In this document: positions 8,666 through 32,723 of the stretch, piece by piece
Layout of the letters: every line of letters starts with the position of its first letter
How positions within the stretch are numbered: position 1 is the first letter of the stretch
Assembly: GCA_023137195.1 (NCBI GenBank)
Contig: JAGLPV010000042.1
Span: 1-32,743 of the forward strand
DNA length: 32,743 nt
Direction: 5' to 3'
DNA from: Candidatus Aenigmatarchaeota archaeon
Lineage (GTDB): Archaea; EX4484-52
The notes under the pieces: model-generated
What the model saw: only the letters and a program-made list of their open reading frames with translations
Told to the model about the DNA's origin: nothing
The model's database searches: none
Program-made: the position numbers and the translations under genes

Positions 8666-8805
8666 ATGTCATATAACATATACCGATCTGTGATGTTTGC
8701 CGAAGGCAAATTTGGATGGAGCGTAGTGAAATCGTATATCTGCTGTTATGTTCTCATCCGAAGGATGACGAGGAGCAAGCGACGAAGAGTCGGACGGAGG
8801 CGGAT
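8666..8805 (-). repeat. attC-like/dif-like hairpin site A
   Basis: On +: TTTGCCGAAGGCAAATTTGG stem-loop, the unit AAATCGTATAT-CTGCTG-TTATGTTCTCA (8729-8756), and GAGGAGCAAGCGACGAAG, which resembles the matching segment of site B. Confidence 0.7.
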
Positions 8806-10118
8806 TATCACTTTTATGGAAATTATTTTATTTCTTGAGAGATTTTTTCTCTTATTTTTTTAGTGCCTATGCTGAGTAAAGGTAATAAAATTATCAAAGA
8901 ACATATTACAATGAGAATTGAAATTAAATAAAGAGTTACAATTTCTAATTTAAATATTTGTGATAGAAGCAAAGCACTTAACACCCCCATACTTTGAACC
9001 ATCCAAAATAAAGCAGTCAAAAACTCAAGATTATATTCTGTAGTTACATCTCCGACCAAAGCATAAGTTATCGGTTTTATAATTGCCCAATTTAATGCAA
9101 GTAAAACAATACCTGAAATTAAAAATATGGTCTTTGATGAAAGAGATAAAAATACGAGGCCAATTAAAAGCAAAATATATGAAAAAATAATCATAATTCT
9201 CCTCCCTTTTATATCTGATAATTTTCCAAAATAATAGGAAAGAAAAAGGGGCAGAATATAGAATAAAGAAGATAGAACTCCAATATATGATATGCCAAGG
9301 ACATTTTTAATTTCAAGTGGGATTACACCAATCACAAGACCATAAACAAAAGTAGTAGCAAACCAAAGACTAGATAATTTCAATGCGGTTGTACTTGTAA
9401 TAGACTTTTTAATAAGTCTGAAATGGTTTATTTCTTGTTTTGCTTTTAAATCTCTCAACCCGAATAATAATAGAAAACCGAGTATGGGAAAAATAGAAAA
9501 AATTATAAAAGAGGCATTGAACAGAAAAACCGAGATAAAAACACCCAAAATAAAAACACCCAATGCAGAACCCAAAGATTGGAAAGAAGCAAAAAATCCT
9601 GAGTTTGTTCCATAGCAACTCTTATCACTCGCCCTTATCAAATAACTATTCTGTCCTGTCCAAAGTAAAGAGGCGGCAATACCAAGTAAAGAAGAACTAA
9701 AGTAAATCAAAACAGTAGATTTGCTCAATAATGAAAGGATAAATATCGAATAAAATACTGAAGATATAATCATACATCTCTTTGCTCCATATTTTGAAAC
9801 AAATAACGCAGATAGAGGATAAAACAAAATAAAAAACAGATAAATTAAAATTAAAGATTGAAAACCCAAATCAATTGCTCCGATATCAGAAAAGAATGTT
9901 GTAATATATTGTTGCACACCATTAAAACCAAGAAATATTAAAAGGAAGCTCAAACTTAATAATTTAACTTCTTTACTTATAGAAAATTTCATATTCATAA
10001 TTAAGATATTGATATTTTATATAATTTTCTAAATACCGCCGCCGTAGCCTGATTGAATATATTTGGTGTCCTGAGAAGTTTTTTCTGAAAAAAAATTTGG
10101 CGCAGCCTCTGGACATAA
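8677..10118 (-). mobile_element. Putative gene cassette A carrying the MFS gene
   Basis: The gene is followed by the hairpin site at 8666-8805. The cassette start on the minus strand, TTATGTCCAGA (10118-10108), matches the inner arm TTATGTTCTCA (8746-8756) at 8/11 positions. Confidence 0.55.
8823..9998 (-). CDS. MFS transporter (UNC-93-like)
   Basis: About 12 TM segments, MFS motif A-like GKLSDIKGRR, and LLWTGQNSY. Confidence 0.85.
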   Translation of the reverse strand: MNMKFSISKEVKLLSLSFLLIFLGFNGVQQYITTFFSDIGAIDLGFQSLILIYLFFILFYPLSALFVSKYGAKRCMIISSVFYSIFILSLLSKSTVLIYFSSSLLGIAASLLWTGQNSYLIRASDKSCYGTNSGFFASFQSLGSALGVFILGVFISVFLFNASFIIFSIFPILGFLLLFGLRDLKAKQEINHFRLIKKSITSTTALKLSSLWFATTFVYGLVIGVIPLEIKNVLGISYIGVLSSLFYILPLFLSYYFGKLSDIKGRRIMIIFSYILLLIGLVFLSLSSKTIFLISGIVLLALNWAIIKPITYALVGDVTTEYNLEFLTALFWMVQSMGVLSALLLSQIFKLEIVTLYLISILIVICSLIILLPLLSIGTKKIREKISQEIK

Positions 10119-10199
10119 TAGTATTATTACTTAAGTCATGATACCACACCAATACAGCACATTACACCAACATTTAATTACAATACACCAAACTAATTT

Positions 10200-10874
10200 T
10201 CACTTAATAAACCCCAAACATTTATCAATCCGTGAAGTCTCCGGACCGGTAGTCCTCCCGCCGGCAATATACATATTTGAATTTGCAACAAGACCAGCCT
10301 TCAAAAAAATACTCCCAAAATTCACACTCCCATAATCTCCTTTCAACCCGGATTCTTCCTCTACAAATTTAATATATTTTTCCTCTACATCATTAGAGCA
10401 CAAAAACCCTTTATTCGTAAGCACAAAAAACACAGCAGGAAGAACCCTGTCCTCAATATCAAGAACATATATTTTTGTCCCGAGAGCTTTCCCTATTTCA
10501 TTTTTTTTAGACTCCAAAACAGGACTAATAAACGTCACCTTATCATTAGTAAGTATCAGATTCCCAAGAGCATTTTCTTTAGTATAAAGAACATGAAGTT
10601 TTACGCCATCCGGCAGGTTCAATTTCAAATTATCTATTTCCTCATCCTCCATACCAGACGGAACAAGCAGACACTTAGAATTCCCTGCAAAAAAAAGCCC
10701 AATCAATGAAGTTTCATAAACACGTGAAAAAACTCTTTTTACTCCCAGCGATGAAACATCTATAGAATCATCCGGAACAATAACATATTTGTCTGTTGCA
10801 GTCAAAAACAGCCCGATATTTTCATTTCCCTGGTAAAATTCCGTATGCAGTGACGAAGAGTATTTTGCTTTCAT
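10200..10874 (-). CDS. eif6: Translation initiation factor aIF6
   Basis: Motifs NIGLF, LIGLFFAGNS, ALGNLILTND, GSVNFGS, GLVANS and TTGPE. Confidence 0.9.
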   Translation of the reverse strand: MKAKYSSSLHTEFYQGNENIGLFLTATDKYVIVPDDSIDVSSLGVKRVFSRVYETSLIGLFFAGNSKCLLVPSGMEDEEIDNLKLNLPDGVKLHVLYTKENALGNLILTNDKVTFISPVLESKKNEIGKALGTKIYVLDIEDRVLPAVFFVLTNKGFLCSNDVEEKYIKFVEEESGLKGDYGSVNFGSIFLKAGLVANSNMYIAGGRTTGPETSRIDKCLGFIK

Positions 10875-10991
10875 ATATTAAAAACAATTTGTTTTTTAAA
10901 TAATTATCTCATTTAGCAGTATATAAACCCCAAGAAAAAGGAAATAGATAAACCCGTGAGTTCTTTAAGTCCCATTCTTCCACCAAGAGAA

Positions 10992-11150
10992 TAATCTCGT
11001 AGTTATCCACAAGATTCTGGCGATTAACACAAGATTAAAATAAAAATAAAATCTCGTGAAAATCTGTGTAATCTGTGGATTAAACAAGTTCCCGTGTCTT
11101 CCCGTGCGTTCCGTGGATTAAACTAACTTTCCCATGTTTCCGTGGATAAA
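10992..11150 (+). repeat. Intergenic palindromic repeat family, copy 2 (longest)
   Basis: ATCCACAAGATT..TTAACACAAGATT, an A-rich loop, AATCTCGTGAAAATCTGTGTAATCTGTGGATTAAA, then two TTCCGTGGAT(T/A)AAA modules. Confidence 0.88.
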
Positions 11151-11217
11151 AAGAAAGAAAGCAAAAATATATAATATTCCAATCAAGAAATATATACTTT
11201 ATTTATAGGGGTATATT

Positions 11218-12468
11218 ATGGATACAAAAAAAAAAATTGATGAAATAAAAGAACTGTTAGGTGAACACAACATTTGGAGAAAAGAGGAATGTTTGAATTT
11301 AATCGCTTCGGAAAACACAACATCTCCCTCCGCGGACAATGTAGCAGTATCAGATTTATCTCACCGCTATGCAGAAGGAAAACCCCATCAAAGACACTAC
11401 CAGGGACTAAAATACGTAGATGATATAGAGGTCCTAACACAGGAACTCATGAAAGAAGTTTTCAAGGCAAAAAGGGTAGATTTGCGTATTTTAAGCGGAA
11501 CGCTCGCAAATGCCGTAGTATACAAAGGTCTCTTAAATCATGGAGACAACATAATTTCAAGTGCCATTCCAAACGGCGGTCACGTCTCCCACACAAGGCA
11601 CGGGATATGCAGTATAATGGGATTGACAGATTTTTCCTTCCCGTTCGACAATTACGAGATGAATATCGATGTTGACGAATCAATAAAAAAAATAGATGAA
11701 AAAGACCCGAAAATGCTATTGTTCGGAGCTTCATTGTTCTTATTCCCCCATCCCGTAAAAGAACTCGTCGATGCCGCAAAAGAACACGATGCTTACATAA
11801 TGTATGATGCCGCCCACGTGCTGGGCTTAATCGCAGGAGGGCAGTTCCAGGACCCATTAAGAGAAGGAGCAGACATAATGAGCGCATCAACACACAAAAC
11901 ATTTTTCGGTCCCCAGGGAGGCATTGTTTTTGGAGGAGAATCCATAGATGACGAAGAATGGAAAAATATAGAAAACGCAATTTTCCCATGCTTCATATGC
12001 AATCACCATCTTCACCGCCTGCCCGTTCTTGCCCAGGCAGCTTATGAATTCACGCAATATGGAGAGGATTACGCAAAGCAGACAATAAAAAACGCAAAAA
12101 CCCTTGGAGAAGAATTATACTCTCTCGGGCTGGACTGCATGGCAGAACACAAGGGCTTTACAGAGAGCCACCAGGTAGTTGTAAATGTAGAAAAAAACGG
12201 CGGCGGAAAACACGTTGCAGAAACATTAGAAAAAAACAACATCATCCTGAACAAGAACTTCATCCCCGGCGAAAAAGTAACAAAAGAAAACATGAACAAC
12301 CCCAATGGCATAAGAATCGGCGTTCAGGAAATGACAAGATGCAAAATGAAAACCGACGAGATGAAGCAGATTGCAGAACTGATAAAAAAAGTGGTTGTTG
12401 ACAAAAAGGATATAACAGAAGAAGTCAAAGAATTCAGGAAAAATTATACAGAAACAGGGTTTTGCTAA
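11218..12468 (+). CDS. glyA: Serine hydroxymethyltransferase (archaeal type)
   Basis: Motifs LIASEN, RYAEG, GGHVSH, YDAAHVLGLIAG, and the PLP lysine motif STHKTFFGPQGG. Confidence 0.96.
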   Translation: MDTKKKIDEIKELLGEHNIWRKEECLNLIASENTTSPSADNVAVSDLSHRYAEGKPHQRHYQGLKYVDDIEVLTQELMKEVFKAKRVDLRILSGTLANAVVYKGLLNHGDNIISSAIPNGGHVSHTRHGICSIMGLTDFSFPFDNYEMNIDVDESIKKIDEKDPKMLLFGASLFLFPHPVKELVDAAKEHDAYIMYDAAHVLGLIAGGQFQDPLREGADIMSASTHKTFFGPQGGIVFGGESIDDEEWKNIENAIFPCFICNHHLHRLPVLAQAAYEFTQYGEDYAKQTIKNAKTLGEELYSLGLDCMAEHKGFTESHQVVVNVEKNGGGKHVAETLEKNNIILNKNFIPGEKVTKENMNNPNGIRIGVQEMTRCKMKTDEMKQIAELIKKVVVDKKDITEEVKEFRKNYTETGFC

Positions 12469-12558
12469 GACATTAAGGCAATGAAGACTATTTGCAAACA
12501 CGTAAGCAAAAAACATATAAAGATAAGAAGATTATAATAAATATAATAAAAAAACATT

Positions 12559-13413
12559 ATGAAAATAATTGAGTTGTTGAAAAAACACAAAAGACGAGTC
12601 TTGTGGTCTCTGTTGTTGATACCTTTGAGCGGAATATTAAGTACTGTTTTGTATATTACAAGTTTTTCAATTTTTGAATTTAAAAAGGATTATTTCTTGT
12701 ATCTATTTATTCTGTTTATATCAGTTAATTATGGACTAACTTTATTAATAGATAAAATCAGTTCTTTTTTTGAAAGAAAAGGTTATAAAAAGATCCATAT
12801 AGTTATAGTAATTGCTCTGATTACAGTTGGTACATATGCTAGTGCTATTGTTATAATAATTAGTGATGTTCATTGTAGTGACGAAAAACCCGCAATATAC
12901 CTTTACCCAGAATCAGATTCTATGATCAGCGTCAAACTAGACATAAATGGAAAAATCATCAAAGATATCCCTCCATACAATAACGGATGGCACGTGTTTG
13001 CAACAAAGGACGGATTGATTGACGGACAATACGACTACCTGTTCTATGAAACAATTCAAAACAAGAAAGTAAAGCTAAATGATAAAGGCTGGATTGTCAA
13101 ATATCCCGAACTAGAAGAATGGTATGATATCACTTTACCTAAGCTTGGATTAAATGAAAAAGAAACAGACCAGTTTAAAGAATACTGGCTGGAGAGACTA
13201 CCGGAAGAAAATTATTATGAAATCAGACTGGTCGGGGAAAAATATCTGGAAGAGAATATCAAGCTTTTAATCAAACCTAAACCAGATACACTTATCAGAC
13301 TAACATTTTATTTTAAAGCAGTTGATGAACCAACCAATTTAGAAGAACCTCAAATTAAAACACCTGTAAGAAACGGTTTCACAGTTGTTGAATGGGGAGG
13401 AATTTTGGGTTAA
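12559..13413 (+). CDS. Membrane-anchored conserved hypothetical protein
   Basis: Three N-terminal TM segments followed by a soluble domain bounded by KPAIYLYP and VVEWGG. Function unknown. Confidence 0.75.
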   Translation: MKIIELLKKHKRRVLWSLLLIPLSGILSTVLYITSFSIFEFKKDYFLYLFILFISVNYGLTLLIDKISSFFERKGYKKIHIVIVIALITVGTYASAIVIIISDVHCSDEKPAIYLYPESDSMISVKLDINGKIIKDIPPYNNGWHVFATKDGLIDGQYDYLFYETIQNKKVKLNDKGWIVKYPELEEWYDITLPKLGLNEKETDQFKEYWLERLPEENYYEIRLVGEKYLEENIKLLIKPKPDTLIRLTFYFKAVDEPTNLEEPQIKTPVRNGFTVVEWGGILG

Positions 13414-13470
13414 AGAATATTAAGCGAATTTTTTTATGTGTCTAATCCAAAATTAAATTAACTAATGGTT

Positions 13471-14448
13471 TCACAATGCCGCCCCTTTATGCGAAATCCC
13501 CTTGTAAGTATCCACATCCATCAAAACCCTTTGGATTGAAGCCACAGTTTTATTCTTAACTTTAATCAAATCATCAGAATCAAGAAACGACTCACCAATT
13601 GCAACAAATTCCCCCTTCACACTCAAAATAGCAACATAATCTCCCTTTTTTATATCATCTGTAAATTTTACAACAGCAGGAGGATATAATGGAACCCCAT
13701 TGCATATACTGTAAATCGCCTTATCTCCCACAACAATCTTAGGTGTGTTCTTCAAGCCGTCTTCCATAGGCAGTATTATTTTTCTCAAATCCTTTTCATC
13801 TTTTGTTTTAATGTAATTTTGATATATTTTGTTTATTTCATCAAGGCAAAAAGAATCTTTCAACTCAAACGGTCCGGCTCTCGTTCGTATAAGTTTCCCC
13901 ATATTCGCCCCGCACCCGATTTGTTCTCCAACATCAGAACACAATTTTCTCATGTAAAAACCAGCTTCCACAGAAGCTCTGAAAAGCACATCCTTTTTTT
14001 TAATTTCAATAATTTTTATATTGTACACCCATCTATTTCTCCACTCTCTCTTTACTGCGCTTTTTACCGGCGGCATCTGCCTGACAACACCGACAAAATC
14101 AAGCAGGGCATTTTTTATCACCCTTTCGTTCTCTTCCTGGTGCAGGTGCATGACACAGACATATTGCTTTCCCTGCTTAGAGATAAGAGAAACCATTTTT
14201 GTAGCATTGTTCAGGGTTACCGGGAGAACCCCGCATACAATGGGATCTAATGTACCACTATGCCCTGCCTTTTCAACATTAAGAACCTTTTTCGTCAAAT
14301 CAACAATATCATGAGAAGTAGGACCATTGTGCTTGTTTACAACAACAATCCCGTTTTCAAGCAAATCTTCAATTTTCCTTTTATGAGGAAGACAGCCATA
14401 TTTCCAGTTCGTCTCTTCATTGGGTTTCTTTATAATCCATTTTTGCAT
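13471..14448 (-). CDS. cbf5: H/ACA pseudouridine synthase Cbf5
   Basis: Motifs GPTSH, GHSGTLDP, QMPPVKSAVKR and LIRTRAGPF, with a C-terminal PUA domain. Confidence 0.95.
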   Translation of the reverse strand: MQKWIIKKPNEETNWKYGCLPHKRKIEDLLENGIVVVNKHNGPTSHDIVDLTKKVLNVEKAGHSGTLDPIVCGVLPVTLNNATKMVSLISKQGKQYVCVMHLHQEENERVIKNALLDFVGVVRQMPPVKSAVKREWRNRWVYNIKIIEIKKKDVLFRASVEAGFYMRKLCSDVGEQIGCGANMGKLIRTRAGPFELKDSFCLDEINKIYQNYIKTKDEKDLRKIILPMEDGLKNTPKIVVGDKAIYSICNGVPLYPPAVVKFTDDIKKGDYVAILSVKGEFVAIGESFLDSDDLIKVKNKTVASIQRVLMDVDTYKGISHKGAAL

Positions 14449-14471
14449 AAAAAAATATGAGTTAAACGTTT

Positions 14472-16343: not shown

Positions 16344-16501
16344 AGTTTTCTTTTCTTGCTTTTTTTTGATTTGAATAAACTTTATTTGTTATTTTAGAAT
16401 GTATTTACAATTCTTTTCTCATATACATTAAAATTAATTTAACGGAATAATAGTTATATTTATACGATATTTTTATAAGTATTATCTTATTAACCATATA
16501 T

Positions 16502-18649: not shown

Positions 18650-18656
18650 TTGAAAG

Positions 18657-18730
18657 CGAGACTGGAGGGATTCGAACCCCCGACCTTATGGTCCGAAGCC
18701 ACACGCTCTAATCCACTGAGCCACAGTCCC
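18657..18730 (-). tRNA. tRNA-Arg (anticodon TCG)
   Basis: Minus strand folds as GGGACTG TG GCTC AGTGGATTA GAGC G TGTGG CT-TCG-GA CCATA AGGTC GGGGG TTCGAAT CCCTC CAGTCTC G. No intron and no encoded CCA. Confidence 0.96.
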
Positions 18731-18900
18731 AATTAAACAGGTATTGCAGATTTAAAAAGTTATACAAAACAGATCTCATCATAATCAATAATCAAAAGCC
18801 CACACGTTATTGTTTTTGTAAATCTGTTATGAAAGGACAATCGAAAAGTATATATAGTTATTCTTGTTTTATATAATGTTGATTATTTAAGTGTGATATC

Positions 18901-19434
18901 ATGCCGTCTAAAAAAGAAGAAATAAGATTAGAGAATACCGAAGATGATTATGAAAGAGTACCTGTTTATTCTTCAAGAAGGAGAAGAGCAGATAATAAAA
19001 CCGATGCTCATGAAAGTACAAATTACGCAAAAAAGATAGAATCGTTTACCGACAGAATGTTTGATATTACTGAATTGAATCAAAAAATTATAGATGATGT
19101 TGTTCGATCCAACCAATCCTTAAGAGAAGATCTTGCTGTGCTAATAGGTAAGATGGAAAATCTGACAAAAAAAATGGATGGATTTGTAGATTTGATGAAT
19201 CAGGCAATGGAGATTGACTCAGGTTCCAGCGCAAGCAAGGAAGTGATGGATGCTATTTCAAAGCCAATCGTAGAAAACATGAAAGCTCTTGTATCAAGCA
19301 ATCAGGAGACAAGCGAGACAATCGTACAATCTATGAATGACATGTCAAAAATGCTCAGGAGAATGCAACTTACCCACATATCTCCTCCTGCATCATCAGG
19401 CAGTAGCATTCTGTCAAGAAGAAGGGAATTATAA
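18901..19434 (+). CDS. Hypothetical coiled-coil protein
   Basis: 177-aa ORF with a heptad-like helical pattern and AT-rich TATA-like sequence upstream. Confidence 0.7.
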   Translation: MPSKKEEIRLENTEDDYERVPVYSSRRRRADNKTDAHESTNYAKKIESFTDRMFDITELNQKIIDDVVRSNQSLREDLAVLIGKMENLTKKMDGFVDLMNQAMEIDSGSSASKEVMDAISKPIVENMKALVSSNQETSETIVQSMNDMSKMLRRMQLTHISPPASSGSSILSRRREL

Positions 19435-19442
19435 ACAAAGTG

Positions 19443-19556
19443 ATGTGGATGGATTTAGACAAATTAGATAATACAAAAAAATTAGAAATATTATTTTTCA
19501 TTATAATGCTTGCAGTACTTATATTTGTGGCGCTGAAGTATCACAACATTATATAA
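19443..19556 (+). CDS. Putative small single-pass membrane protein (37 aa)
   Basis: Translated by hand: MWMDLDKLDNTKKLEILFFIIMLAVLIFVALKYHNII. Starts 8 nt after the upstream stop. Confidence 0.45.
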   Translation: MWMDLDKLDNTKKLEILFFIIMLAVLIFVALKYHNII

Positions 19557-19594
19557 AAATCCCCTTGTACGAGATGAATTTTAGGCAGTAATTC

Positions 19595-20188: not shown

Positions 20189-20236
20189 AGATTATTTTGT
20201 TTTCAACGTATATAAACCTTTTCGCTTCTTTAGAAT

Positions 20237-20509: not shown

Positions 20510-20523
20510 AATAATTTTATAGA

Positions 20524-22374: not shown

Positions 22375-22458
22375 ACTATATATTTTGTAAACTATATTTA
22401 AATATGTTTGTTTTTCTTGGGCGTTAAACTTATATTATTTAACCAGTAATAATCCCTC

Positions 22459-24213
22459 ATGGACAATACAAATAAAATTTTTGCATTTTTTATGCTGATT
22501 GCAATTTTAATGACATCAGGATGCTCAGATAATTTGCAGGAAATAAAAGAGAAGATTGACGACTGGAAATATGATTCACAGGCAAGTTCAGATGGGATTT
22601 CAAAAGGATTGGGCGGACTAAGTAATATAGGTTCAATGAAGTCAATGGCTGTCTCAGAATCAATGGCTGCATCAGGAGGAAACCTGGGATTCTCAACAGG
22701 AGGCGCAAAAGACATCAACAATTTCCGACAAAACATAAACAACAGCTATCTGCCGATATCTACGGACATAACATACGAAGGCTTATTTTACGACTATTAT
22801 TTTGACACAGGTCAGACAGAAGAATGCACAGAATTATTCTGCCCTTCTTACACTTACTCAATTTCCAAAGACCCTTTTTCCAACAAGGAAGAATATTACC
22901 TGTCTGTTGGATTGAATTCAGGCATAAAAGAAAGTGATTTCCAAAGGAAAAAACTAAACCTCGTTATTGTACTGGACATTTCAGGTTCAATGGGTTCGTC
23001 TTTCAACAGGTATTATTACGACCAGTTCGGCAGTAGAAGGACAAACGAACAAACAGAAGAAGAGGACAACGAGGATTACCATAAAAACAAGATGCAGATT
23101 GCATCAGAAGCAGTTGTGGGACTCATGGATCATCTAAACGACGACGACAGGTTCGGTATGGTGCTTTTTGACAGCAGTGCAGAATTGGCAAAACCATTGA
23201 GTCTTGTAGGAGAAACAGACATGCAGAAAATAAAAGACCACATCCTGGAAATTCATTCAAGAGGCGGGACACAAATGTCTGCCGGCATGAAGATGGGCAC
23301 AGAACAATTCAACGAGTTGACAGACATAAACCCTGACGAATACGAAAACAGGATAATATTTTTGACAGATGCAATGCCAAACATAGGAGAGACCAGCGAG
23401 CAAGGTCTTCTTGGCATGACCAATAAAAATTCACAAAACGGAATTTATTCAACTTTCATCGGCATCGGTGTTGATTTCAACACAGAATTGATAGAATACA
23501 TAACAAAAATAAGAGGAGCAAATTATTATTCCGTGCATAGCGCAAAAGAATTCAAGACCAGGATGGATGACGAATTTGAATACATGGTAACCCCATTAGT
23601 ATTTAATCTCCAGTTGACTCTGGATGCAGACGGCTACGAAATCCAAAAGGTTTACGGCTCCCCCGAAGCAGATGAAGCAACAGGAGAAATAATGAAAGTA
23701 AACACATTGTTTCCTTCAAAAGTAGAAGAAAACCAGACAAGAGGAGGACTAGTATTGTTGAAGCTAAAAAAATTATCACCAGATGCAAGCCTGAACCTTA
23801 AAGCAAGCTACGAAGACAGGAACGGAAAACCCGCGAATAATGAAAAAATCATTGAACTCGGAGACGAGGAAGCAGATTTTTACGAAAACACAGGAATCAG
23901 GAAAGGAATCCTCCTCTCCAGGTATGCAGACCTTATGAAAAACTGGATAAATGATGAAAGGCAAAGCTATTCAGACCCGGAACCAATACCACCATGCGTC
24001 AACAGAGAAATAGGAATAATCATACCTATGCCAATTGATCCACAGCTCGGAAAATGGGAACGCCAGTCAGTTACTCTCCAGGTTTCACAGCATTACAGGG
24101 ACTTGTTTGATGAGTTTAGCATTTACTTTGAGGAAGAGATGAACGCTCTTGAAGACGAGACTCTAAATCAGGAACTAGATGTATTAAGAACCCTTGCTGA
24201 GTACAGCAGCTAA
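22459..24213 (+). CDS. Secreted von Willebrand factor A domain protein
   Basis: Signal peptide ending TSGC, MIDAS DISGSM, GGT and FLTDAMPN. Confidence 0.88.
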   Translation: MDNTNKIFAFFMLIAILMTSGCSDNLQEIKEKIDDWKYDSQASSDGISKGLGGLSNIGSMKSMAVSESMAASGGNLGFSTGGAKDINNFRQNINNSYLPISTDITYEGLFYDYYFDTGQTEECTELFCPSYTYSISKDPFSNKEEYYLSVGLNSGIKESDFQRKKLNLVIVLDISGSMGSSFNRYYYDQFGSRRTNEQTEEEDNEDYHKNKMQIASEAVVGLMDHLNDDDRFGMVLFDSSAELAKPLSLVGETDMQKIKDHILEIHSRGGTQMSAGMKMGTEQFNELTDINPDEYENRIIFLTDAMPNIGETSEQGLLGMTNKNSQNGIYSTFIGIGVDFNTELIEYITKIRGANYYSVHSAKEFKTRMDDEFEYMVTPLVFNLQLTLDADGYEIQKVYGSPEADEATGEIMKVNTLFPSKVEENQTRGGLVLLKLKKLSPDASLNLKASYEDRNGKPANNEKIIELGDEEADFYENTGIRKGILLSRYADLMKNWINDERQSYSDPEPIPPCVNREIGIIIPMPIDPQLGKWERQSVTLQVSQHYRDLFDEFSIYFEEEMNALEDETLNQELDVLRTLAEYSS

Positions 24214-24347
24214 TCAGGGATAAAAGAAGTTGCCGAAGGCAATTTGGAAAAATGCCGAGCTGAGACATTTCATTTTATCCCTTGTTATACGAGGGCGAGG
24301 AGCGATAGTGACGAAAGCACAGCGTCTCTTCAAGTAGCCAGACGGAT
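24211..24347 (-). repeat. attC-like/dif-like hairpin site B
   Basis: On +: TAA-TCAGGG-ATAAAAGAAGT, TGCCGAAGGCAATTTGG, TTTCATTTTAT-CCCTTG-TTATACGAGGG, then GAGGAGCGATAGTGACGAAAG. Confidence 0.8.
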
Positions 24348-24969
24348 TTAATTTTCACTAATTAACCAAAAACCGCCGCTTTTTTCTTTTCCATGATATT
24401 CCATGGCATCAATTAATTTTTTTAGTTCAACTTTTCTTAATTTAGGCACATCTTTTCCAGGATCTATTAAAGAAACAATATTATTTTCAATTCCTTGAAT
24501 CAAAGAAACATGTCCGCAATCTCCTTTTCCATACAATTTTTCATTATTGAAACATACAATAATGTCATTATTCTTTCTGATATTTGAAATAATGAATTCT
24601 TTGACATCAGAAATATCTTTGACAAAAAAATATATTTCTTTGAGATTAATATTATTTTTCTGAAAATAATTATTTATTGAATATTGTTTCTTTCCGACCT
24701 GTGTACCATATCCCTCAATTGGCTTTTTGCCAGTTCTGACTTTTGTGTAAAGATGTACCTTTTCTTTTGGAACAGTTAAACCAAAATCATATCCTATTTC
24801 ATCTTGTGTGCCATGGAATATTTTTCTTCTGTCTAAAATCATAGAAATGCATGTTGGAACACAACAATATGGTTTTTGATCAAGTGATTTGTAAGGCGGT
24901 TTTTGGTTCATGTCTATTTGAAATTATACTAAGTTTATATACATTTCGAGTGAGGACTATTTCGTATAA
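24214..24969 (-). mobile_element. Putative gene cassette B carrying the peptidase-like gene
   Basis: Hairpin site at 24211-24347 downstream of the gene. The far end ATTTCGTATAA (24959-24969) supplies the arm complementary to the inner arm TTATACGA (24285-24292). TAAT is present at both junctions. Confidence 0.75.
24348..24911 (-). CDS. Papain-like/C39-like cysteine peptidase domain protein
   Basis: Q-x3-CC nucleophile region (DQKPYCCVPTCISMIL), GHVSLI and LIDP give the Q/C/H/D order of C39-like peptidases. Confidence 0.65.
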   Translation of the reverse strand: MNQKPPYKSLDQKPYCCVPTCISMILDRRKIFHGTQDEIGYDFGLTVPKEKVHLYTKVRTGKKPIEGYGTQVGKKQYSINNYFQKNNINLKEIYFFVKDISDVKEFIISNIRKNNDIIVCFNNEKLYGKGDCGHVSLIQGIENNIVSLIDPGKDVPKLRKVELKKLIDAMEYHGKEKSGGFWLISEN

Positions 24970-24990
24970 TATCCTAGAGACAGAATCGTT

Positions 24991-25113
24991 TAAATCCACA
25001 AGATTCTTACGATTAACACAGATAAAGATAATCTCGTGAAAATCTGTGTAATCTGTGGATTAAAATCACTTTCCTGTTGGTTCCGTGGGTTCCGTGTTTT
25101 CCGTGGATTAAAA
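24991..25113 (+). repeat. Intergenic palindromic repeat family, copy 3
   Basis: TAAATCCACAAGATT..TTAACACAGAT, AATCTCGTGAAAATCTGTGTAATCTGTGGATTAAA, then TTCCGTGGGTTCCGTGTTTTCCGTGGATTAAA. Confidence 0.88.
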
Positions 25114-25148
25114 TGAATATATTTAAATGTTAACACAAAATAAGTTAT

Positions 25149-26000
25149 ATGAAAAAAACATACGTATTCACAATATTATCAATATTGCTTTTAACTTCAG
25201 GATGCACCACCACCAATGTAGTACAGACCCCGGGTGGCGTCGACATTCTTGATTTTTCTCCGCTCCCGGATACAGTCTATAGCGGCGAAGAAGCAAAGCT
25301 GATTTATGAAATCCAGAACAATGGAGCGTATGATTCCAATATTGAAGTATATCTTGAAAAAATAGACACAGACAAATGGAGTGCAACAGAGACATCCACA
25401 ACAATAAGCAGTCTTCCAAAAAAACAACAAAAGGTAGAAGGAGGAAAAGAAATAGGTTTTTTTAGCATAACCGCCCCGGAAATAGACAAGAATACAAGGC
25501 AGATATTCAATGCAGAATTGAAGATGTGTTATTTATACAAAACACAAACAGTATTCAAATACGACATTACAAACTCTTTTGAAAAACAAAAGAAAATAGA
25601 ACAGGGAACATACGCCAGAAAAATACCCTTTTACAGGAATTCCATATCTCCCTTGCTGGTAGAACCTCTTACAAAAGAGCCCCTTTACGGCGGGAAAGAT
25701 GAAGTGACGCTTTCATTCAGAGTAAAAGACCACGAGAGAGGAATGCTTATAAATTCAAACACATGCGTGCAAAACCCGGATGCAGGAGAATTCAATAATT
25801 ACCAGTATACTCTGACCTCACCGGATGCAGGTATTACAATAACATGCGATGAAGACACAGTCCGTCTGGTGGATGGCATCTCAATCTTTTACTGCACATT
25901 AAGCGGCATAAGCGGGAAAACTTCCGTTACCTTGACAATGACATCAGAGTATGCTTATTACCAGTCAAAGAGTACGAGAATAACTGTTAACGGGATTTGA
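25149..26000 (+). CDS. Secreted/surface hypothetical protein (beta-rich)
   Basis: Signal peptide ending LTSGC, beta-strand pattern (YEIQNNG, CYLYKT) and several cysteines. Confidence 0.75.
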   Translation: MKKTYVFTILSILLLTSGCTTTNVVQTPGGVDILDFSPLPDTVYSGEEAKLIYEIQNNGAYDSNIEVYLEKIDTDKWSATETSTTISSLPKKQQKVEGGKEIGFFSITAPEIDKNTRQIFNAELKMCYLYKTQTVFKYDITNSFEKQKKIEQGTYARKIPFYRNSISPLLVEPLTKEPLYGGKDEVTLSFRVKDHERGMLINSNTCVQNPDAGEFNNYQYTLTSPDAGITITCDEDTVRLVDGISIFYCTLSGISGKTSVTLTMTSEYAYYQSKSTRITVNGI

Positions 26001-26034
26001 TTAATTTTTAAGAAAATATAGTATATTAGATATT

Positions 26035-27825
26035 ATGGACAACATAAGAATTGCAGTAGTGAACAAAAAAAAATGCACCCCAAAAAGATGCGCCCACGAG
26101 TGTTATAATTTTTGTCCGAAAGTAAGAGCAGGAGCAAGCACAATAAAAGTAGGAACCAAATGCATTGAAATCACAGAAGACCTGTGCATCGGTTGCGGTA
26201 TTTGTGTAAAAAAATGCCCGTTCAAAGCAATATCCATAGTAAATTTATCATGCGACTTAGGCAGTGTCGTCCATCAATACGGCAAAAACACATTCAGGTT
26301 ATACAATCTTCCAATGCCCAGGAAAGGAGATATCGTCGGTCTGATTGGTCAGAATGCAATCGGAAAGACAACAACTATAGAGTTGTTTTCAGGAAGCGAA
26401 ATCCCGAACATGGGAGAATATGACCAAAAAACAACAAAGGAAGAAAAATACGACAAATTAATAAAAACATACAGGGCAAGTTCCCTGCATAATTTTTTTT
26501 CAGAACTCAAAAAAAATAAGATAACTTCCGCCTACAAACCCCAGAAAATAGACAGGTTGGTCGCCACATTTGACAGCAAAGACACAGTTGGAGATGTTAT
26601 CAAAAAAACAAAACTAAATGAAAAAAAAGTAATTGACTTGCTAAAGGACATAAACAATGATGATGCAGACAGCGATTTTCTGGATAAAAAAGCAAAGAAT
26701 TTGAGCGGTGGAGAAGTCCAAAAACTGGCAATTGCAATAACTCTTTGCAAGGACAGGGACATTTATTTTTTTGACGAACCCTCGTTATATTTAGACATCT
26801 ACAACCGATTAAGCGTTGCAAGACACATAAAAAAATTAAAAGAAAAAGATGCGTATTGTTTTGTCGTAGAGCACGACCTTGCAATCGTAGATTATATGTG
26901 CGATTATGTCCACATGTATTTTGGAAAGCAGGGAGTTTACGGCGCAGTTTCAGACCCATATTCAGCAAACCAGGGAATCAACACATACCTGAGTGGATAT
27001 TTAAAAGACAAGAATATCCGCTTCCGTGACAAGGCACTTGTCTTTGATTTCACTTCGCAAAAAACAGTTTCAGAAAAAGTTGTTTTCAAATATCCTTCAT
27101 TCACAAAAAAATACACAGGATTCAATCTCAAATGCGAGGGAGGAACACTTAACGAAGGAGAAGTTGTAGGAATTTTCGGCGCAAATGCGCTCGGGAAAAC
27201 CACATTCGCAAAAATACTTGCAGGAGTTGAAAAGAGCGACGAGAAAGTAAAACTAAAAACCAAGATATCCTACAAGCCACAATATTTAGAAAGCGATTTT
27301 AAAGGAAAAGTAGAGGATATAATTTATTCTTCGGACTGCCAGATGAAGGATTTCATGGAAATATCCCAGCACCTGAGAATCGGAGACATTCTTCAAAGGC
27401 AGGTCGCAACATTGAGCGGAGGAGAATTGCAGAGACTCGCAATCGCAATTTGCATGAGCAGGGATGCAGACATCTATCTCCTGGATGAGCCGAGTGCTTA
27501 CTTGGATGTTGAAGAAAGAGTCAGGCTGTCAAGAATCATAAGAGACATAACCCAGCTAAAACTAAAATCCACTCTGGTAATAGACCACGACATGATTTTT
27601 CTGAACTATACTGCCGACAAATCCATAGTATTTACCGGCAAGAGTGGAAAGAGCGGTTTTGCAGATAAACCAAAAGACCTTTATGCTGGATTCAACAGGT
27701 TTTTGAGCGAGTTAAACATAACCTTCCGGCTGGACAAGGAAACAAAAAGACCAAGAGCAAACAAGGAAAATTCCCAGAGAGATAGGACACAAAAAGAAAA
27801 AGGACAATATCTTGCTTTGGAATGA
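26035..27825 (+). CDS. abce1: Ribosome recycling ATPase ABCE1 (RLI)
   Basis: N-terminal Fe-S motifs (CxPxxCxxECxxxCP, CIGCGICVKKCP), two ABC domains, and C-terminal RPRANK. Confidence 0.96.
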   Translation: MDNIRIAVVNKKKCTPKRCAHECYNFCPKVRAGASTIKVGTKCIEITEDLCIGCGICVKKCPFKAISIVNLSCDLGSVVHQYGKNTFRLYNLPMPRKGDIVGLIGQNAIGKTTTIELFSGSEIPNMGEYDQKTTKEEKYDKLIKTYRASSLHNFFSELKKNKITSAYKPQKIDRLVATFDSKDTVGDVIKKTKLNEKKVIDLLKDINNDDADSDFLDKKAKNLSGGEVQKLAIAITLCKDRDIYFFDEPSLYLDIYNRLSVARHIKKLKEKDAYCFVVEHDLAIVDYMCDYVHMYFGKQGVYGAVSDPYSANQGINTYLSGYLKDKNIRFRDKALVFDFTSQKTVSEKVVFKYPSFTKKYTGFNLKCEGGTLNEGEVVGIFGANALGKTTFAKILAGVEKSDEKVKLKTKISYKPQYLESDFKGKVEDIIYSSDCQMKDFMEISQHLRIGDILQRQVATLSGGELQRLAIAICMSRDADIYLLDEPSAYLDVEERVRLSRIIRDITQLKLKSTLVIDHDMIFLNYTADKSIVFTGKSGKSGFADKPKDLYAGFNRFLSELNITFRLDKETKRPRANKENSQRDRTQKEKGQYLALE

Positions 27826-28031
27826 TTTTATTATTTTTAACTTCTTTTATCCATAATGTTAAATGAAATAATTTTTAGTGGCTCAGAATAGAAAGGGGGG
27901 CAATTCAAAAAAAACGGAGGGGCTAGTCCTAACAGACATTTACACTCACTTCGTTCGAAATCTATAAGGGTGTTCTTTAAAATAAAATCCTTTATAAAGA
28001 AGAGACAATATCTTATTTATGGGGCAATAAA

Positions 28032-29657
28032 ATGCATATAAAAGAAATCACAATTAAGAATTATAAATGTTTTAAAGGAACATTTCATTTAAAATTAAAT
28101 AAAAATACAAATATTCTTGTTGGAAATAATGAAGCTGGAAAATCAACAATTTTAGAAGCAGTTCATCTAACACTAACAGGGTTGATAAATGGAAAATACT
28201 TAAAAACAGAATTAACTCAACACCTTTTTAATAATGAAATTATTGAAGAATATTTAGAAAATATTAATAATACTAATTTGACTACAATACCATCATCACC
28301 CCCAGAGATTATAATAGAGCTTTTTATAGAAAGTGATGATTTATCTATTCTAGAAGGTAGCAAAAATAGTAAAAATAGAAAAGAATGTGGTTTATCATTC
28401 AAAATTAGTTTAAAGGATAATTTAAAAGAAGAATATGAGGAGTTAGTAAAATCGGGAAAAATTAAATCACTGCCCATAGAATATTATGATTTTTCATGGA
28501 CTTCCTTTGCAAGAGAATCTAAAACACCAAGAACAATACCTATAAAATCAGCATTAATAGATTCATCCAGTAATAGATATCTAAATGGATCAGACGTATA
28601 TATTTCTCGTATAGTTAAAGATTACTTGGATATTAAAGATATAATCAATATTTCTAAAGCTCATCGTAAATTAAAAGATGCTTTTTCAGAGGAACAGGCA
28701 ATTAAAGATATTAATAAAAAAATTCAAGATGCTTCAAAAATTTCTAATAAAAATATTGAATTGTCTGTTGACTTATCCACAAAAAATGCATGGGAAAATA
28801 GTTTAACAACTTATTTGGATAAAATTCCATTTCATTACATAGGTAAAGGAGAACAATGCATTATTAAAACTAATTTAGCTTTAAATCATAAAAAAGCTAC
28901 TGAAGCAAATATTTTATTATTAGAAGAACCTGAAAATCATTTATCTCACACTAAACTTAGTCAATTAATGAAAGATATTAAAGAAAAGAATGACAAACAG
29001 ATTATAATTTCTACTCACAGTAGCTATGTTGCAAATAAACTAGGATTAAATGAGCTAATTATTTTAAACAATCGTAAAACTACTTTATTGTCTAATTTAA
29101 GTAAAGACACACAATTATTCTTTGAAAAATTGTCTGGATACAATACTTTAAGATTTGTTCTTTGTAAAAAAGCAATTCTGGTTGAAGGAGATTCAGATGA
29201 ATTAATTGTACAAAAAGCATATCTGAATAGTAATAATGGAAGATTACCTATCGAAGATGAAATTGATGTAATATCCGTTGGATTATCTTTTAAGAGATTT
29301 TTAGAAATTGCACAGAAGATTCAACAACAAGTAAGGGTTGTTACTGATAACGATGGAAATTATGATGATAATATTACAAAAAAATATGAATCTTACAATG
29401 ATTGTCAATCAATTATGATCTGTGCTGATTCAGATAACTCATTAAATAGCCTTGAACCTCAAATCGTAGATATAAATGATTTAACTATTTTGAGAACGGT
29501 ATTAGGAATAACTTCTGAAAAATATCCAGATAAAAGTGCAATTGTGAAGTATATGGAAAACAATAAAACAAAATGTGCATTAAAAATATTTGATACTGAT
29601 GAAAATATAAAGTTTCCACAATATGTCTTGGATGCGATAAATGATGAATATGAGTGA
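28032..29657 (+). CDS. gajA: OLD-family ATP-dependent TOPRIM nuclease (Gabija GajA-like)
   Basis: Walker A GNNEAGKS, Walker B LLLEEPENHL, STHS, and TOPRIM motifs LVEGDSD and DND. Confidence 0.85.
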   Translation: MHIKEITIKNYKCFKGTFHLKLNKNTNILVGNNEAGKSTILEAVHLTLTGLINGKYLKTELTQHLFNNEIIEEYLENINNTNLTTIPSSPPEIIIELFIESDDLSILEGSKNSKNRKECGLSFKISLKDNLKEEYEELVKSGKIKSLPIEYYDFSWTSFARESKTPRTIPIKSALIDSSSNRYLNGSDVYISRIVKDYLDIKDIINISKAHRKLKDAFSEEQAIKDINKKIQDASKISNKNIELSVDLSTKNAWENSLTTYLDKIPFHYIGKGEQCIIKTNLALNHKKATEANILLLEEPENHLSHTKLSQLMKDIKEKNDKQIIISTHSSYVANKLGLNELIILNNRKTTLLSNLSKDTQLFFEKLSGYNTLRFVLCKKAILVEGDSDELIVQKAYLNSNNGRLPIEDEIDVISVGLSFKRFLEIAQKIQQQVRVVTDNDGNYDDNITKKYESYNDCQSIMICADSDNSLNSLEPQIVDINDLTILRTVLGITSEKYPDKSAIVKYMENNKTKCALKIFDTDENIKFPQYVLDAINDEYE

Positions 29658-30786
29658 AAACAAATTAATTATTGCTGCTGCGGGTTCTGGAAAAACCACT
29701 TTTATTATCAATGAAGCATTAAAACAAACAGATAATGTATTAATAACGACATTTACAGAAGCAAACGAAAAAGAAATTAAAAATAAAATTATTAAGATTA
29801 AGAAATGTATTCCAGCAAATATAACTATCCAAACATGGTTCTCATTTTTATTACAGCATGGAGTAAGACCATATCAAGATTCATTAAATTCCGAATTATA
29901 TCATAAAAAAATAGGATTTTATCTTACGGAAAGACCTTCAGGATATAGATTTACTAACAAATTCAAACAACCTGTTTATTGGGGAGAAAAAGATTTTTTC
30001 AATTATTATTTTGATAAAAAATTTAAAATATATTCAGATAAGATTTCTAAATTTATAATTGAATCAGATAAGAAAACAAATGGAAAAATATTTAATAGAA
30101 TTTCAAAAATATATAAACATATTTTTATTGATGAAGTACAAGATTTAGCAGGTTGGGATTTAGAAATTTTAAAATCATTATTTAAGATTTCATCTAATAT
30201 ACTCTTAGTTGGCGATCCAAGACAAGTTACTTACTTAACACATCATCCTAAAAAATATGCAAAATACAAAAATGGTCAAATTATTGATTTTATTAAAAAT
30301 GAATGCACAAAAGACATCTGCAATATAGATTTAGACAACCTAAATAAATCACATAGAAATAACAAGGAAATTTGTTATTATTCTTCAAAATTATTCCCTG
30401 ATTTTAATCCATGTTTAGCCTGTACTTGTGCTAAATGTAGGGAGCAAAACACAGACCATGAAGGTGTATTTTTTGTTAAAAAAGAAGATGTTGAAAAATA
30501 TTTTAAAAAATATTCACCAACGATATTGAAACCAAAATCTGCTATTTATCCTGAATGGAACTATGGAAAATCAAAAGGTTTAACTTTTGATAGAGTCCTT
30601 ATATATCCAACAAGTCCAATTATTAAATGGATTGGAAATAATGATGAAGATTTACCGCCAACAAGTCGCTCTAAATTTTATGTTGCTTTAACCAGAGCCA
30701 AACACAGTGTGGCAATAATTTATAATTATGTTAAGGAAGATAATCTTGACGGAATTCAGAAATGGGAGAATATAGAAATGAAATGA
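29650..30786 (+). CDS. gajB: UvrD-like helicase (Gabija GajB-like)
   Basis: Motifs AAAGSGKT, DEVQD, VGDPRQ, KGLTF and YVALTRAK. Overlaps the gajA stop. Confidence 0.85.
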   Translation: MSENKLIIAAAGSGKTTFIINEALKQTDNVLITTFTEANEKEIKNKIIKIKKCIPANITIQTWFSFLLQHGVRPYQDSLNSELYHKKIGFYLTERPSGYRFTNKFKQPVYWGEKDFFNYYFDKKFKIYSDKISKFIIESDKKTNGKIFNRISKIYKHIFIDEVQDLAGWDLEILKSLFKISSNILLVGDPRQVTYLTHHPKKYAKYKNGQIIDFIKNECTKDICNIDLDNLNKSHRNNKEICYYSSKLFPDFNPCLACTCAKCREQNTDHEGVFFVKKEDVEKYFKKYSPTILKPKSAIYPEWNYGKSKGLTFDRVLIYPTSPIIKWIGNNDEDLPPTSRSKFYVALTRAKHSVAIIYNYVKEDNLDGIQKWENIEMK

Positions 30787-30973
30787 TGTATTCAATAATT
30801 TAATAGAACGCCTTAAATGTTCTTTTAAAAAAAGAACCAAAAAGCCCCTCCTAAAAAACAAAAAAGAATTGTTCCCTAGACTTGTTCTTGCTGTGTCGCA
30901 TTCGCTCATTTGATAGAACGCCACTAAAAATTACTCTGCGGTTTGCTTCGCAAATCCTCAGGACGGCTTGCAG

Positions 30974-31076
30974 CCTTTCGTTTCGCTCACCCTTCTCATT
31001 TAATAAGGATTATGAGGAAAATCTGCTGTTCCCAATCGCCTACGGCGAACTTCTCATAATCCTGATTATACAAAAC
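30974..31076 (+). repeat. attC-like/dif-like hairpin site C
   Basis: TTCTCATTTAA-TAAGGA-TTATGAGGAAA, CCCAATCGCCTACGGCGA, then ACTTCTCATAA-TCCTGA-TTATACAAAAC. Confidence 0.8.
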
Positions 31077-31132
31077 TCTAACCCAATCTAAAAACAAATA
31101 TGTTTAAATAAATATGAGGATTTATCATAGAT

Positions 31133-31600
31133 ATGAAATACACAATAGAACAAATTGGGATAATCCACAGTCCATATAAAACAAAAGAGGAATGTCCTAT
31201 TCAAGGCAATGTAAATCCCGAAGGGAAAGGACAAATAGAATTATTTACAGAATATGAAGAAGGATTAGAAACAATTGAGACATTTTCACATATTATGCTG
31301 TTTTATATTTTTGATAAAGCCGGCGAAATAAAATTAGCCCGTCCAACATTTTTAGATGATTCTCCACATGGCGTTTTTGCTTCCAGGCATCCTTGTAGAC
31401 CAAACAGCATCGGCATCTCAATTGTAAAACTAGAAAAAAGAAACAAAACTATTATGGTAGTATCAGGAATAGACGTTCTCGACAAGACCCCTCTAATTGA
31501 TATTAAACCATACATCTTCAGATTTGATCATTTTGATAACGCAAATAACGGATGGGCAGAGACAAAAAAAATCCGTCCAAAACCAAAGGCAATAGAATAA
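31133..31600 (+). CDS. tsaA: tRNA m6t6A37 methyltransferase TrmO/TsaA family
   Basis: Motifs IGIIHSPY, GVFASRHPCRPNSIG and TPLIDIKPY. Confidence 0.9.
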   Translation: MKYTIEQIGIIHSPYKTKEECPIQGNVNPEGKGQIELFTEYEEGLETIETFSHIMLFYIFDKAGEIKLARPTFLDDSPHGVFASRHPCRPNSIGISIVKLEKRNKTIMVVSGIDVLDKTPLIDIKPYIFRFDHFDNANNGWAETKKIRPKPKAIE

Positions 31601-31604
31601 AACC

Positions 31605-31726
31605 AAGACTGTACTTTCACTCTATCACTCCGTTTACCCCCACCCTACAACAAAAGACAAATTACTTAAATCACAATTTCCCAATTATTCACTGCATTCA
31701 CAAAACACATTTTATCTCTGGGGTTA
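31605..31726 (+). repeat. Decayed hairpin site D downstream of tsaA
   Basis: CTGTACTTTCACTCTATCACTCC, TACAA-CAAAAG-ACAAAT, TTTCCCAATT and CATTTTAT-CTCTGGGG-TTA are collinear with the minus strand of site B. Confidence 0.45.
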
Positions 31727-31846
31727 AGGTTTTATTGTTCGTTGCTTGTAAAAAACAATTACAACAACCAAACTGTTGTTTAATACAACCCAGGAATTAA
31801 TAAATATAAAAAGCTACTTTCAAATAAACTTCTATGGGGTTGTAAA

Positions 31847-32652: not shown

Positions 32653-32723
32653 AAATCCACAAGATTATGGCGATTAACACAAGATTAAAATAAAAATAAA
32701 ATCTCGTGGAAATCTATGTAATC
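32653..32723 (+). repeat. Intergenic palindromic repeat family, copy 4 (interrupted)
   Basis: 32655-32723 matches 11005-11073 at 66/69 nt by manual count, then the similarity stops abruptly. Confidence 0.9.

Follow-up and report, generated by a model that had tools for sequence, protein, structure and literature searches.

How do accessory genes, among them a complete defence system, come to lie one or two at a time between the core genes of a small archaeal chromosome, followed by hairpin-forming sequences and with no recombinase encoded nearby? The question is raised by a 32,743-nt contig of a Candidatus Aenigmatarchaeota archaeon (lineage EX4484-52; assembly GCA_023137195.1, contig JAGLPV010000042.1), hereafter called the window. 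The window is contig C37 of a genome (G000) of 1.42 Mb in 57 contigs that is 85% complete. It has a G+C content of 35% and encodes the archaeal core proteins eIF6, aCPSF1/FttA, Cbf5, RLI and TrmB; the elements described below sit among such genes (eIF6, RLI, Cbf5 region). An earlier note on this DNA had proposed that the accessory units are circularisable cassettes, inserted singly between housekeeping genes by a tyrosine recombinase encoded elsewhere. For comparison, we used 41 small relatives of G000 (0.5-2.2 Mb), the 'order' and 'phylum' scopes corresponding to the same 42 genomes. The sequencing runs that contain window DNA are cold-seep metagenomes, from one main study.

We read these elements, with a probability of about 0.75, as integron-type gene cassettes that start with TTA-nnnn-(A/C)AAT and end in a folded recombination site. 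Strands are exchanged between a G, replaced by A in sites B and C, and the TT that comes next; because the cut falls there, the far half of the outer helix of each site belongs to the downstream DNA, and the cassette's own half is found at its 5' end. The sites would act as single-strand hairpins mimicking a duplex composed of an arm of ~11 nt, a spacer of 5-6 nt and an arm of 11 nt, and the cassettes would move as circles.

A family of folded sites at the ends of gene units

Sites A (8670-8790, minus strand), B (24205-24320, minus strand) and C (30930-31074, plus strand) were found where the earlier note had placed them and with the layout that it described. Each lies 3' of the final gene of its unit, on the strand of that gene, and the three align with one another and are members of one structured family. 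They have in common CTYTCGT..GCTC, an arm ending in TAAC or TAAT, the motifs CCMAAT, GCCTWCGGC and ACWTC, a second arm and TTA. Read on the gene strand, the plan of the whole family opens with the motif ACT(C)TTC and with mini-hairpins that are GC-rich and have T(T/A)C triloops, and continues with an inverse core ending in (T/C)(A/T)AAC, one unpaired A and a variable arm of 10-12 nt. The centre is composed of a small hairpin, YCCAAAT, another hairpin and ACTTC, after which come the matching arm, a spacer of 4-6 nt (often TGAT) and the core GTTA.....AAT.

A covariance model (R1) was built on 11 copies with the structure entered by hand; RNAalifold, run on a plain MAFFT alignment, predicted no base pairs. 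R1 detects site A (8670-8752, E 2.3e-9), site B (E 1.6e-10) and site C (E 1.8e-8). Scanning the genome and its relatives with such a model, as the earlier note had proposed, led to the identification of 13 copies in G000 (nhmmer and R1), some of them on further contigs, and of 14 R1 hits in the congeneric genome G001. Hits at E<=0.01 are present in 26 of the 41 relatives, and at E<=1e-4 in 21 of the 42 genomes. The conserved site centre is common to eight families of one lineage. Same-strand arrays, often with 400-1300 nt between sites, occur in G001, G029, G010, G031, G033, G027, G041 and others; for instance, contig G001:C82 carries four sites ~500 nt apart, and further arrays are present on G001:C66, G029:C10 and G031:C188. 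Most of the cassette open reading frames (ORFs) have no Pfam match (8/10).

The statement that the arms co-vary within each cassette held in the larger sample. Among 58 copies aligned to R1, a procedure that biases the alignment toward pairing, 79.0% of the inner-helix cells are paired, versus 65.5% after shuffling (a value of 79.0% was reached in none of 500 shuffles) and 24-42% when the arms are slid; all seven pairs of the inner helix (7/7) are altered on both sides. Where a copy has its cognate outer helix, the predicted fold is a three-way junction: the outer helix measures 7-10 bp and the inner one 10-11 bp, the loop between them is asymmetric (1 nt vs 2-5 nt), and two triloop hairpins follow (Z-scores of -4.1 to -6.4, both strands being equally good). 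Sites B and C, as they stand in the window, form mainly the inner helix, the outer helix having 0 bp in B and 4 bp in C.

Permuted half copies were also detected at G000:C1:692-790 (minus strand), G000:C45:33840-33937 (plus strand) and G000:C56:39701-39736 (minus strand), two of them directly 3' of a complete site. Their order is ACTTC-arm, spacer, inverse core-arm, hairpin, CCCAAAT and end, and they resemble sites broken within the central hairpin. A hammerhead and a C/D box were both considered for the CTGATG stretch and rejected, since other copies of the family have no CTGATG.

Halves of sites are exchanged between neighbours

When the circle junctions of the units carrying sites B and C are rebuilt by eye, helices of 8+10 bp (B) and 9+11 bp (C) are obtained. 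The partner of site B, TTATACGA, lies at 24962-24969 (minus strand), 51 nt 5' of the ORF start, and that of site C, TTAAATGA, at 27859-27866 (plus strand), 34 nt 3' of the RLI stop codon. The earlier note had predicted for all three sites that the arm missing after the final TTA would be found at the 5' end of the same unit; this was borne out for B and C, whereas the TTATGT near 10110 that it had proposed as the partner of site A turned out to be the ATTATG junction of the dif-like leader described below. Since matches to the two 8-mers alone are not rare in the window (six for TTAAATGA versus 5.8 expected, and four for TTATACGA versus 1.1 expected), the statistical weight comes from a pair test across the family.

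The inverse core ends in AAC, and the core begins with GTT, in 46 of 55 non-overlapping model hits (20 loci), typically as (A/T)ATAAC or CTAAC and as GTTA. These 46 confident sites give 26 pairs in which one site follows the other on the same strand at a distance of at most 5 kb. The six positions following GTT complement the inverse core of the next site (5-6/6) in 19 of the 26 pairs; their own inverse core is matched at this level in 4/26, and random pairs from different loci in 12% (permutation p<1e-5). Arm complementarity is widespread in further copies, where its lack had been named as a finding that would speak against the proposal. Within G000, the next-site rule applies in four places, namely B, C and two sites on other contigs. 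On contig C56, the upstream site ends in G|TTATATTC and the downstream one begins with GAATATAAC (pairing stretch GTTATATTC/GAATATAAC), with an ORF of 174 aa between them; on contig C5, the match is 9/9, with the start GTTATAATCAAT. These observations demonstrate the exchange of site halves between neighbours and support an integron-type split-site logic, with crossover at G|TT, across the family.

Cassettes of the window

The cargo genes and sites of the window are arranged in a first array on the minus strand (leader, site D, MFS gene and site A), a single cassette (B) and a second array on the plus strand (half site, Gabija genes and site C, TrmO); we infer the limits of the cassettes from the junctions. 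The earlier note had envisaged single insertions, which fits cassette B alone: C and TrmO form a two-cassette array, and the MFS unit follows a leader and a degenerate site.

In the dif-like leader of the first array (10114-10174, minus strand), one 11-nt arm is separated by a 6-nt spacer (CTTAAG) from a second arm that has partly decayed; ATTATG comes next, which in relatives marks where the cassettes start. The leader is followed by site D (~10046-10113, minus strand), a degenerate and ORF-less site read by eye, which has no model score. Its parts are a helix (TGTCCAGAG/CTCAGGACA), CCAAAT at 10095-10100, a hairpin with a run of T, ACTTC at 10075-10079 and a core that has decayed, aaTATATTCAAT (10052-10063); the sequence GGCTACGGC occupies 10041-10049. 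The MFS transporter gene (8823-9998, minus strand; PF07690, E 4.3e-29) is the cargo of a cassette running from ~10062 to 8677. In site A, which follows this gene, we recognise ACTCTTC (8784-8790), the inverse core GAACATAAC, the inner helix, CCAAAT-GCCTTCGGC-ACATC and the core G|TTATAT (G at 8677). A more probable start of the MFS unit is the core of site D, aaTATATTCAAT, which by eye matches the inverse core GAACATAAC of site A at 8/9 positions. A family member of another species, in G003:C25 (L014 2640-2730), lies on the plus strand directly after the stop codon of a YjeF_N gene; this spot has been used independently in two species, because the site present there in the window lies on the opposite strand, as part of the MFS unit.

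Cassette B (24214-24969, minus strand) begins with TTATACGAAAT, read from 24969 downwards, and carries an ORF (24348-24911) with a weak match to C39-like peptidases. The convergent VWA gene has its stop codon, TAA, in the TTA of the 3' junction (24211-24213).

The second array opens with a half site of 19 nt (27840-27858, plus strand) directly 5' of cassette C, composed of ACTTC, a stretch resembling a second arm and ATAATG; it shares 14 identical nt with the corresponding stretch of site B (blastn, B 100-113 versus 27839-27852). Cassette C (27859-31065, plus strand; 5' end TTAAATGAAAT) is a low-GC island (25-30% versus ~36% around it) and encodes the two proteins of a Gabija system, GajA (28032-29657) and GajB (29641-30786). 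The two genes are adjacent and full length according to PADLOC (E 7.6e-208 and 3.1e-133, respectively), and Pfam detects AAA_15 and an OLD-like TOPRIM domain in GajA and UvrD in GajB.

The cassette that follows (31066-31726, plus strand; 5' end TTATACAAAAC) encodes a TrmO (tsaA-like) protein (ORF 31133-31600), present in 6/41 genomes, G000 counted. The earlier note had considered a related site probable after this gene; there is indeed one at 31612-31726, in a degenerate form, with ACTTTC, CAAC, CCCAAT and G|TTAAGG. Homology with the TrmO unit of G001:C34 is limited to 31066-31603, starting at the TTA junction, and the neighbourhood in G001 is different; the G001 unit begins with TTATACGAAAT, so that the starts of B (TTATACGAAAT), C (TTAAATGAAAT) and both TrmO units all conform to TTA-nnnn-(A/C)AAT. 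Another short repeat, three copies of a unit ending in ...AAGACTCTTTTATTG ~70 nt apart, is present 3' of TrmO at G001:C34:3300-3600.

Natural strains without the cassettes

Three other genomes of the genus (G001-G003) gave no clean empty sites, because their genes are only ~70-80% identical to those of G000 and synteny is broken. The presence or absence of the cassettes was read from Logan contigs, matched to the window at 90% likeness in four runs (X1-X4). One X4 contig joins 24205 to 24978 with 14 other letters between and keeps a single TAA, and thus comes from a strain without cassette B. One TTA is left on the minus strand, at the predicted junction, and the flanks are those of the window save for strain differences, from which it follows that the VWA stop codon is where cassette B was inserted.

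The second array is missing as a block (27840-31751, from the half site through cassette C and the TrmO cassette to ~25 nt beyond) in strains of X3 and X4, in which a joint 27839->31752 with TCAC between brings RLI next to the upstream region of TrmB. The X3 contig is 446 nt long (sides of 201 and 241 nt, with 11 and 6 differences), and one side of the X4 contig is 74 nt. In addition, contigs of X1-X4 match the window from ~27856, the 5' start of cassette C, onward and are unlike it before. The unlike sequence ends in ...CTG in 4/5 of the consensus rows listed (6/8 contigs), which together with the shared ATG resembles the CTGATG end of another site; this suggests that the same cassette C start is present in another array. 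Short joints with sides below 30 nt (e.g. 27883->30896) were set aside, as they are probably shared cassette ends or repeats. A scan of metagenome contigs with RLI gave no close relative, only five loci at 23-31% identity.

A 1-kb insertion relative to G003 was also noted at 12467-13485, where the SHMT and Cbf5 genes converge. It contains an ORF (12559-13413; 284 aa, no Pfam match) and no site of the family, and gene gain is therefore possible there without these sites.

A dif-like leader at the head of arrays

The dif site consists of two 11-nt inverted arms and a 6-nt spacer (PMC8371274). The leader that heads the MFS array has this 11-6-11 form. A copy in G001:C50 (at 5363), ~60 nt from the start codon of a recombinase gene and before the first cassette, is a near-perfect palindrome, TGGTATCATTA-CTTAAG-TCATGATACCA, with two 11-nt arms followed by ATTATG|TTA. 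Other intact copies are found at G000:C45:33514 (after purT and just before a site) and at G003:C21:1118 (array head), and G000, G001 and G003 each have the leader in two positions. None was detected in G002, a genome that has no sites either. The second arm of the leader, ATTATG and the cassette start would together constitute an arm-spacer-arm site, and the folded cassette sites would mimic the same geometry, with ~11 bp of inner helix, then 4-6 nt left unpaired and ~11 bp of outer helix, the latter cut one base inside. At G001:C82:12330-12400, an inverted copy of the first cassette start, TTATACGAAAT, stands before it together with GATG. The array-head palindrome so formed corresponds to the outer box as a minimal duplex that lacks the inner helix, and may be another point of entry.

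Candidate recombinases of the XerA family

No recombinase gene lies in the window, and the earlier note had proposed to look for a tyrosine recombinase, IntI or XerA, elsewhere in the genome. Two such enzymes, and only two, were found in the 85%-complete G000, one on contig C1 and one on C45; each passes the archaeal XerA model, and neither is an IntI. No protein passes the cut-off of the integron integrase model TIGR02249 in any of the 42 genomes, ten of which are at least 90% complete. Four recombinases that were tested score 187-225 bits against this cut-off of 265, and all pass the XerA model NF040815. Positions 180-237 of TIGR02249, corresponding to the IntI-specific region, were never matched, the alignment lacking the insertion. 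The nearest solved structure is XerA of P. abyssi (4a8e), and among the matches listed for the G000 recombinase, which include many bacterial Xer proteins, the best named ones are from Pacearchaeota and Woesearchaeota metagenome-assembled genomes (MAGs), with 43-47% identity, no more than a hint of affiliation. No Y1 transposase (PF01797), serine recombinase or TnpB was found in G000 (85% complete). A guide pairing of IS200/605 type was rejected, the pairing being of 8-9 bp and no Y1 gene being present in G000.

Recombinase genes are divergent from nearby arrays in G001:C50 and G008:C40 (a fragment), both at 0.2 kb, in G001:C82 (1.1 kb) and in G041:C78 (1.8 kb), with the leader between gene and array in G001:C50; four more lie 2.1-5.7 kb from arrays (G008:C65, G029:C16, G010:C28 and G000:C1). 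A recombinase tree of 27 rows displays two clades. The first includes the single recombinases sampled from families without sites; the second groups the G000:C1 protein with those encoded head to head with arrays (G001:C50, G001:C82, G008:C65, G029:C16 and G010:C28). The enzyme acting in G000 is probably the XerA-family paralogue encoded at G000:C1:6574-7434 and not an IntI; in G001, its orthologue faces, head to head, both a cassette array and a dif-like site.

The enzyme of the cassettes would then be a XerA-family tyrosine recombinase paralogue. A tentative proposal, to which we give slightly less than even odds, is that of an integron analogue devoid of integron integrase, in which a duplicated XerA-type recombinase takes up and shuffles the cassettes, the hairpins being folded mimics of dif-type sites and the dif-like palindrome the entry site.

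Points against and alternative explanations

Several observations weigh against the interpretation as integron-type cassettes served by a XerA paralogue. At the sites themselves, A and not G precedes TTA in sites B and C (ATTA instead of GTTA), and the next-site rule fails for 7 of the 26 array pairs, most of them being far apart and possibly hiding undetected sites. Either strand may be the one that folds (the bottom one in attC sites): A.C cells outnumber G.T cells in the inner helix (48 vs 11), but 25 of the A.C cells fall in one column, and 23 vs 11 remain without it. A co-oriented gene lies just upstream in only 7 of the 14 G000 copies examined, many copies being solo or ORF-less, and the permuted half copies of contigs C1, C45 and C56 have no explanation.

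For the natural strains, empty-site contigs are few and come from one study (one for B and two for C plus TrmO), and no circle junction or recombination product was seen directly. The earlier note had regarded breakpoints away from the TTA junctions as evidence against its proposal; that of B is at the predicted TTA, but those of the C plus TrmO block lie 19 nt to the left of the TTA of C and ~25 nt to the right of that of TrmO. The latter event is therefore not a simple excision at the junctions, and looks like the loss or gain of a whole landing pad together with its cassettes.

As to the enzyme and leader, the link between recombinase and sites is one of neighbourhood only, and not every recombinase was placed in the tree (G041:C78 and the G008:C40 fragment were left out). 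A clade-1 Xer gene on G000:C45 has a site at a distance of 1.7 kb; sites are also present in G007 and G009, although the recombinase sampled from each of these belongs to clade 1; and G013 has two strong sites and no Xer match at E<=1e-20. Finally, the cassette junction of the leader is 6 nt outside the palindrome, after ATTATG, and not at the spacer.

The elements could alternatively be ordinary integron cassettes, mobilised by a canonical IntI that is encoded on unassembled parts of the MAGs or supplied in trans by the community, the nearby Xer proteins being bystanders. Site anatomy and crossover are indeed those of attC, G000 is only 85% complete, and a published survey (PMC9668308) reports that attC clusters of archaeal MAGs are mostly integrase-less and that bacterial IntI1 recombines archaeal attCs. 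We nevertheless regard this explanation as unlikely: the IntI search came out empty in all 42 genomes, those at least 90% complete included, the recombinases right beside arrays are XerA-like and lack the IntI insertion, and the conservation of the site centre across eight families of the lineage suggests a resident enzyme.

It is much less probable that the sites are structured RNA signals at gene ends (terminators, stabilisers or elements of 3' untranslated regions) whose association with gene gain and loss is secondary. Covarying helices, compact hairpins with triloops and the location of many copies directly after stop codons are what such signals would display; folding, however, cannot explain why a core complements the inverse core of the next site, half of the G000 copies examined (7/14) are not 3' of a co-oriented gene, and a scan of the window against Rfam (E<=1) detected no match at the sites. 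The single Rfam hit is an ordinary tRNA-Arg (TCG) gene at 18656-18730 (minus strand), between a beta-propeller gene and an ORF of 177 aa.

The least credible alternative, that of small non-autonomous repeats (similar to miniature inverted-repeat transposable elements or repetitive extragenic palindromes) moving alone and not carrying the neighbouring genes, would account for the solo and ORF-less copies in mixed orientation and for a G001 copy (G001:C66:1638-1711) that is 92% identical to the 5' half of site A and has another 3' half and another neighbour gene, but it is contradicted by the edges of gene-bearing units, which match site arms, by gene-plus-site units that are present or absent as wholes with junctions at TTA, by the same cargo bounded at G|TTA in other contexts (partly seen, for TrmO and the 5' end of C), by the lack of terminal inverted repeats or target duplications visible by eye, and by the lack of Y1 or TnpB genes in the incomplete G000 assembly.

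Another repeat family in the window

A second, unrelated family of intergenic repeats is present in the window at 6396-6473, 11005-11122, 24985-25100 and 32655-32723. It is defined by the boxes ATCCACAAGATT / AATCTCGTG / GTGGATTAAA, occurs in both orientations and has copies of 85-92% identity in G001 and G003. Joints of the assembly graph connect its copies (25058->32653), and one copy abuts the 5' flank of cassette B.

Comparison with known systems

The attC sites of integrons have the consensus inverse core RYYYAAC and core GTTRRRY. Archaeal integrons have been described, mostly as attC clusters devoid of integrase, in the same survey (PMC9668308), which left single sites out and counted as IntI only proteins with the extra domain; the arrays of the present lineage may already be listed in its tables. 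Our cassettes share several features with integron cassettes: a promoter-poor ORF followed by an imperfect palindrome with an AAC inverse core and a GTT core, the G|TT crossover with half-site exchange between neighbours, same-strand arrays whose sites are under 4 kb apart (the window itself having only two short arrays and one single cassette), sites more alike within than between lineages, and cargo mostly of unknown function. Unlike in integrons, no IntI with the extra domain is present in any of the 42 genomes and a dif-like leader takes the place of known attI. The sites also differ from attC in their conserved CCAAAT-hairpin-ACTTC centre, forming a three-way junction instead of a free variable loop, and in the additional conserved ACTCTTC and GC-hairpin region at their 5' side.

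Bacterial integron cassettes can also insert outside att sites, at attG, in a reaction reported to be catalysed by IntI (bioRxiv 10.1101/2022.09.11.507474). The likeness to our elements is in the dispersal of single cassettes over the chromosome, at the ends of ordinary genes or in the gaps that separate them, with cassette B located in a stop codon at a bare A|TTA; the differences are the archaeal host and the lack of any IntI found here, whereas the attG route depends on IntI in bacteria.

The Gabija system of cassette C resembles known ones in its adjacent and full-length GajA and GajB genes, and differs from the usual situation in that the pair is the cargo of a single recombination cassette on an archaeal chromosome. 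Defence systems occur in bacterial integron cassettes. What is new here is the presence of single or short-array cassettes among core archaeal genes, the existence of natural strains without them, and a crossover fixed across the family. A literature search of limited scope found no report of a Xer-type recombinase serving archaeal cassette arrays. If our proposal is correct, the system would be either a living intermediate of the proposed origin of IntI from Xer or an independent invention of the same solution, and it would supply very small archaeal genomes with Gabija systems, transporters and tRNA-modification genes. The sites, being short, conserved and well delimited, are suited to assays of single- versus double-strand recombination.

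In CTX-type phages, a folded single strand mimics dif and exploits the Xer recombinases of the host. Our elements are similar to these phages and to the pdif modules of Acinetobacter (PMC7399989) in that a housekeeping-type Xer protein is the likely enzyme, that the folded strand is predicted to rebuild an arm-spacer-arm site, and that dif-like sequences are located beside inserted DNA. They differ from both in their gene-sized cassettes assembled in arrays with half-site exchange, in a junction situated 6 nt outside the palindrome rather than in the spacer, and in a second Xer paralogue that appears to be dedicated to them. Should the roles of this XerA paralogue and of the dif-like leader hold, the comparison would bear on how integron integrases arose from Xer recombinases.

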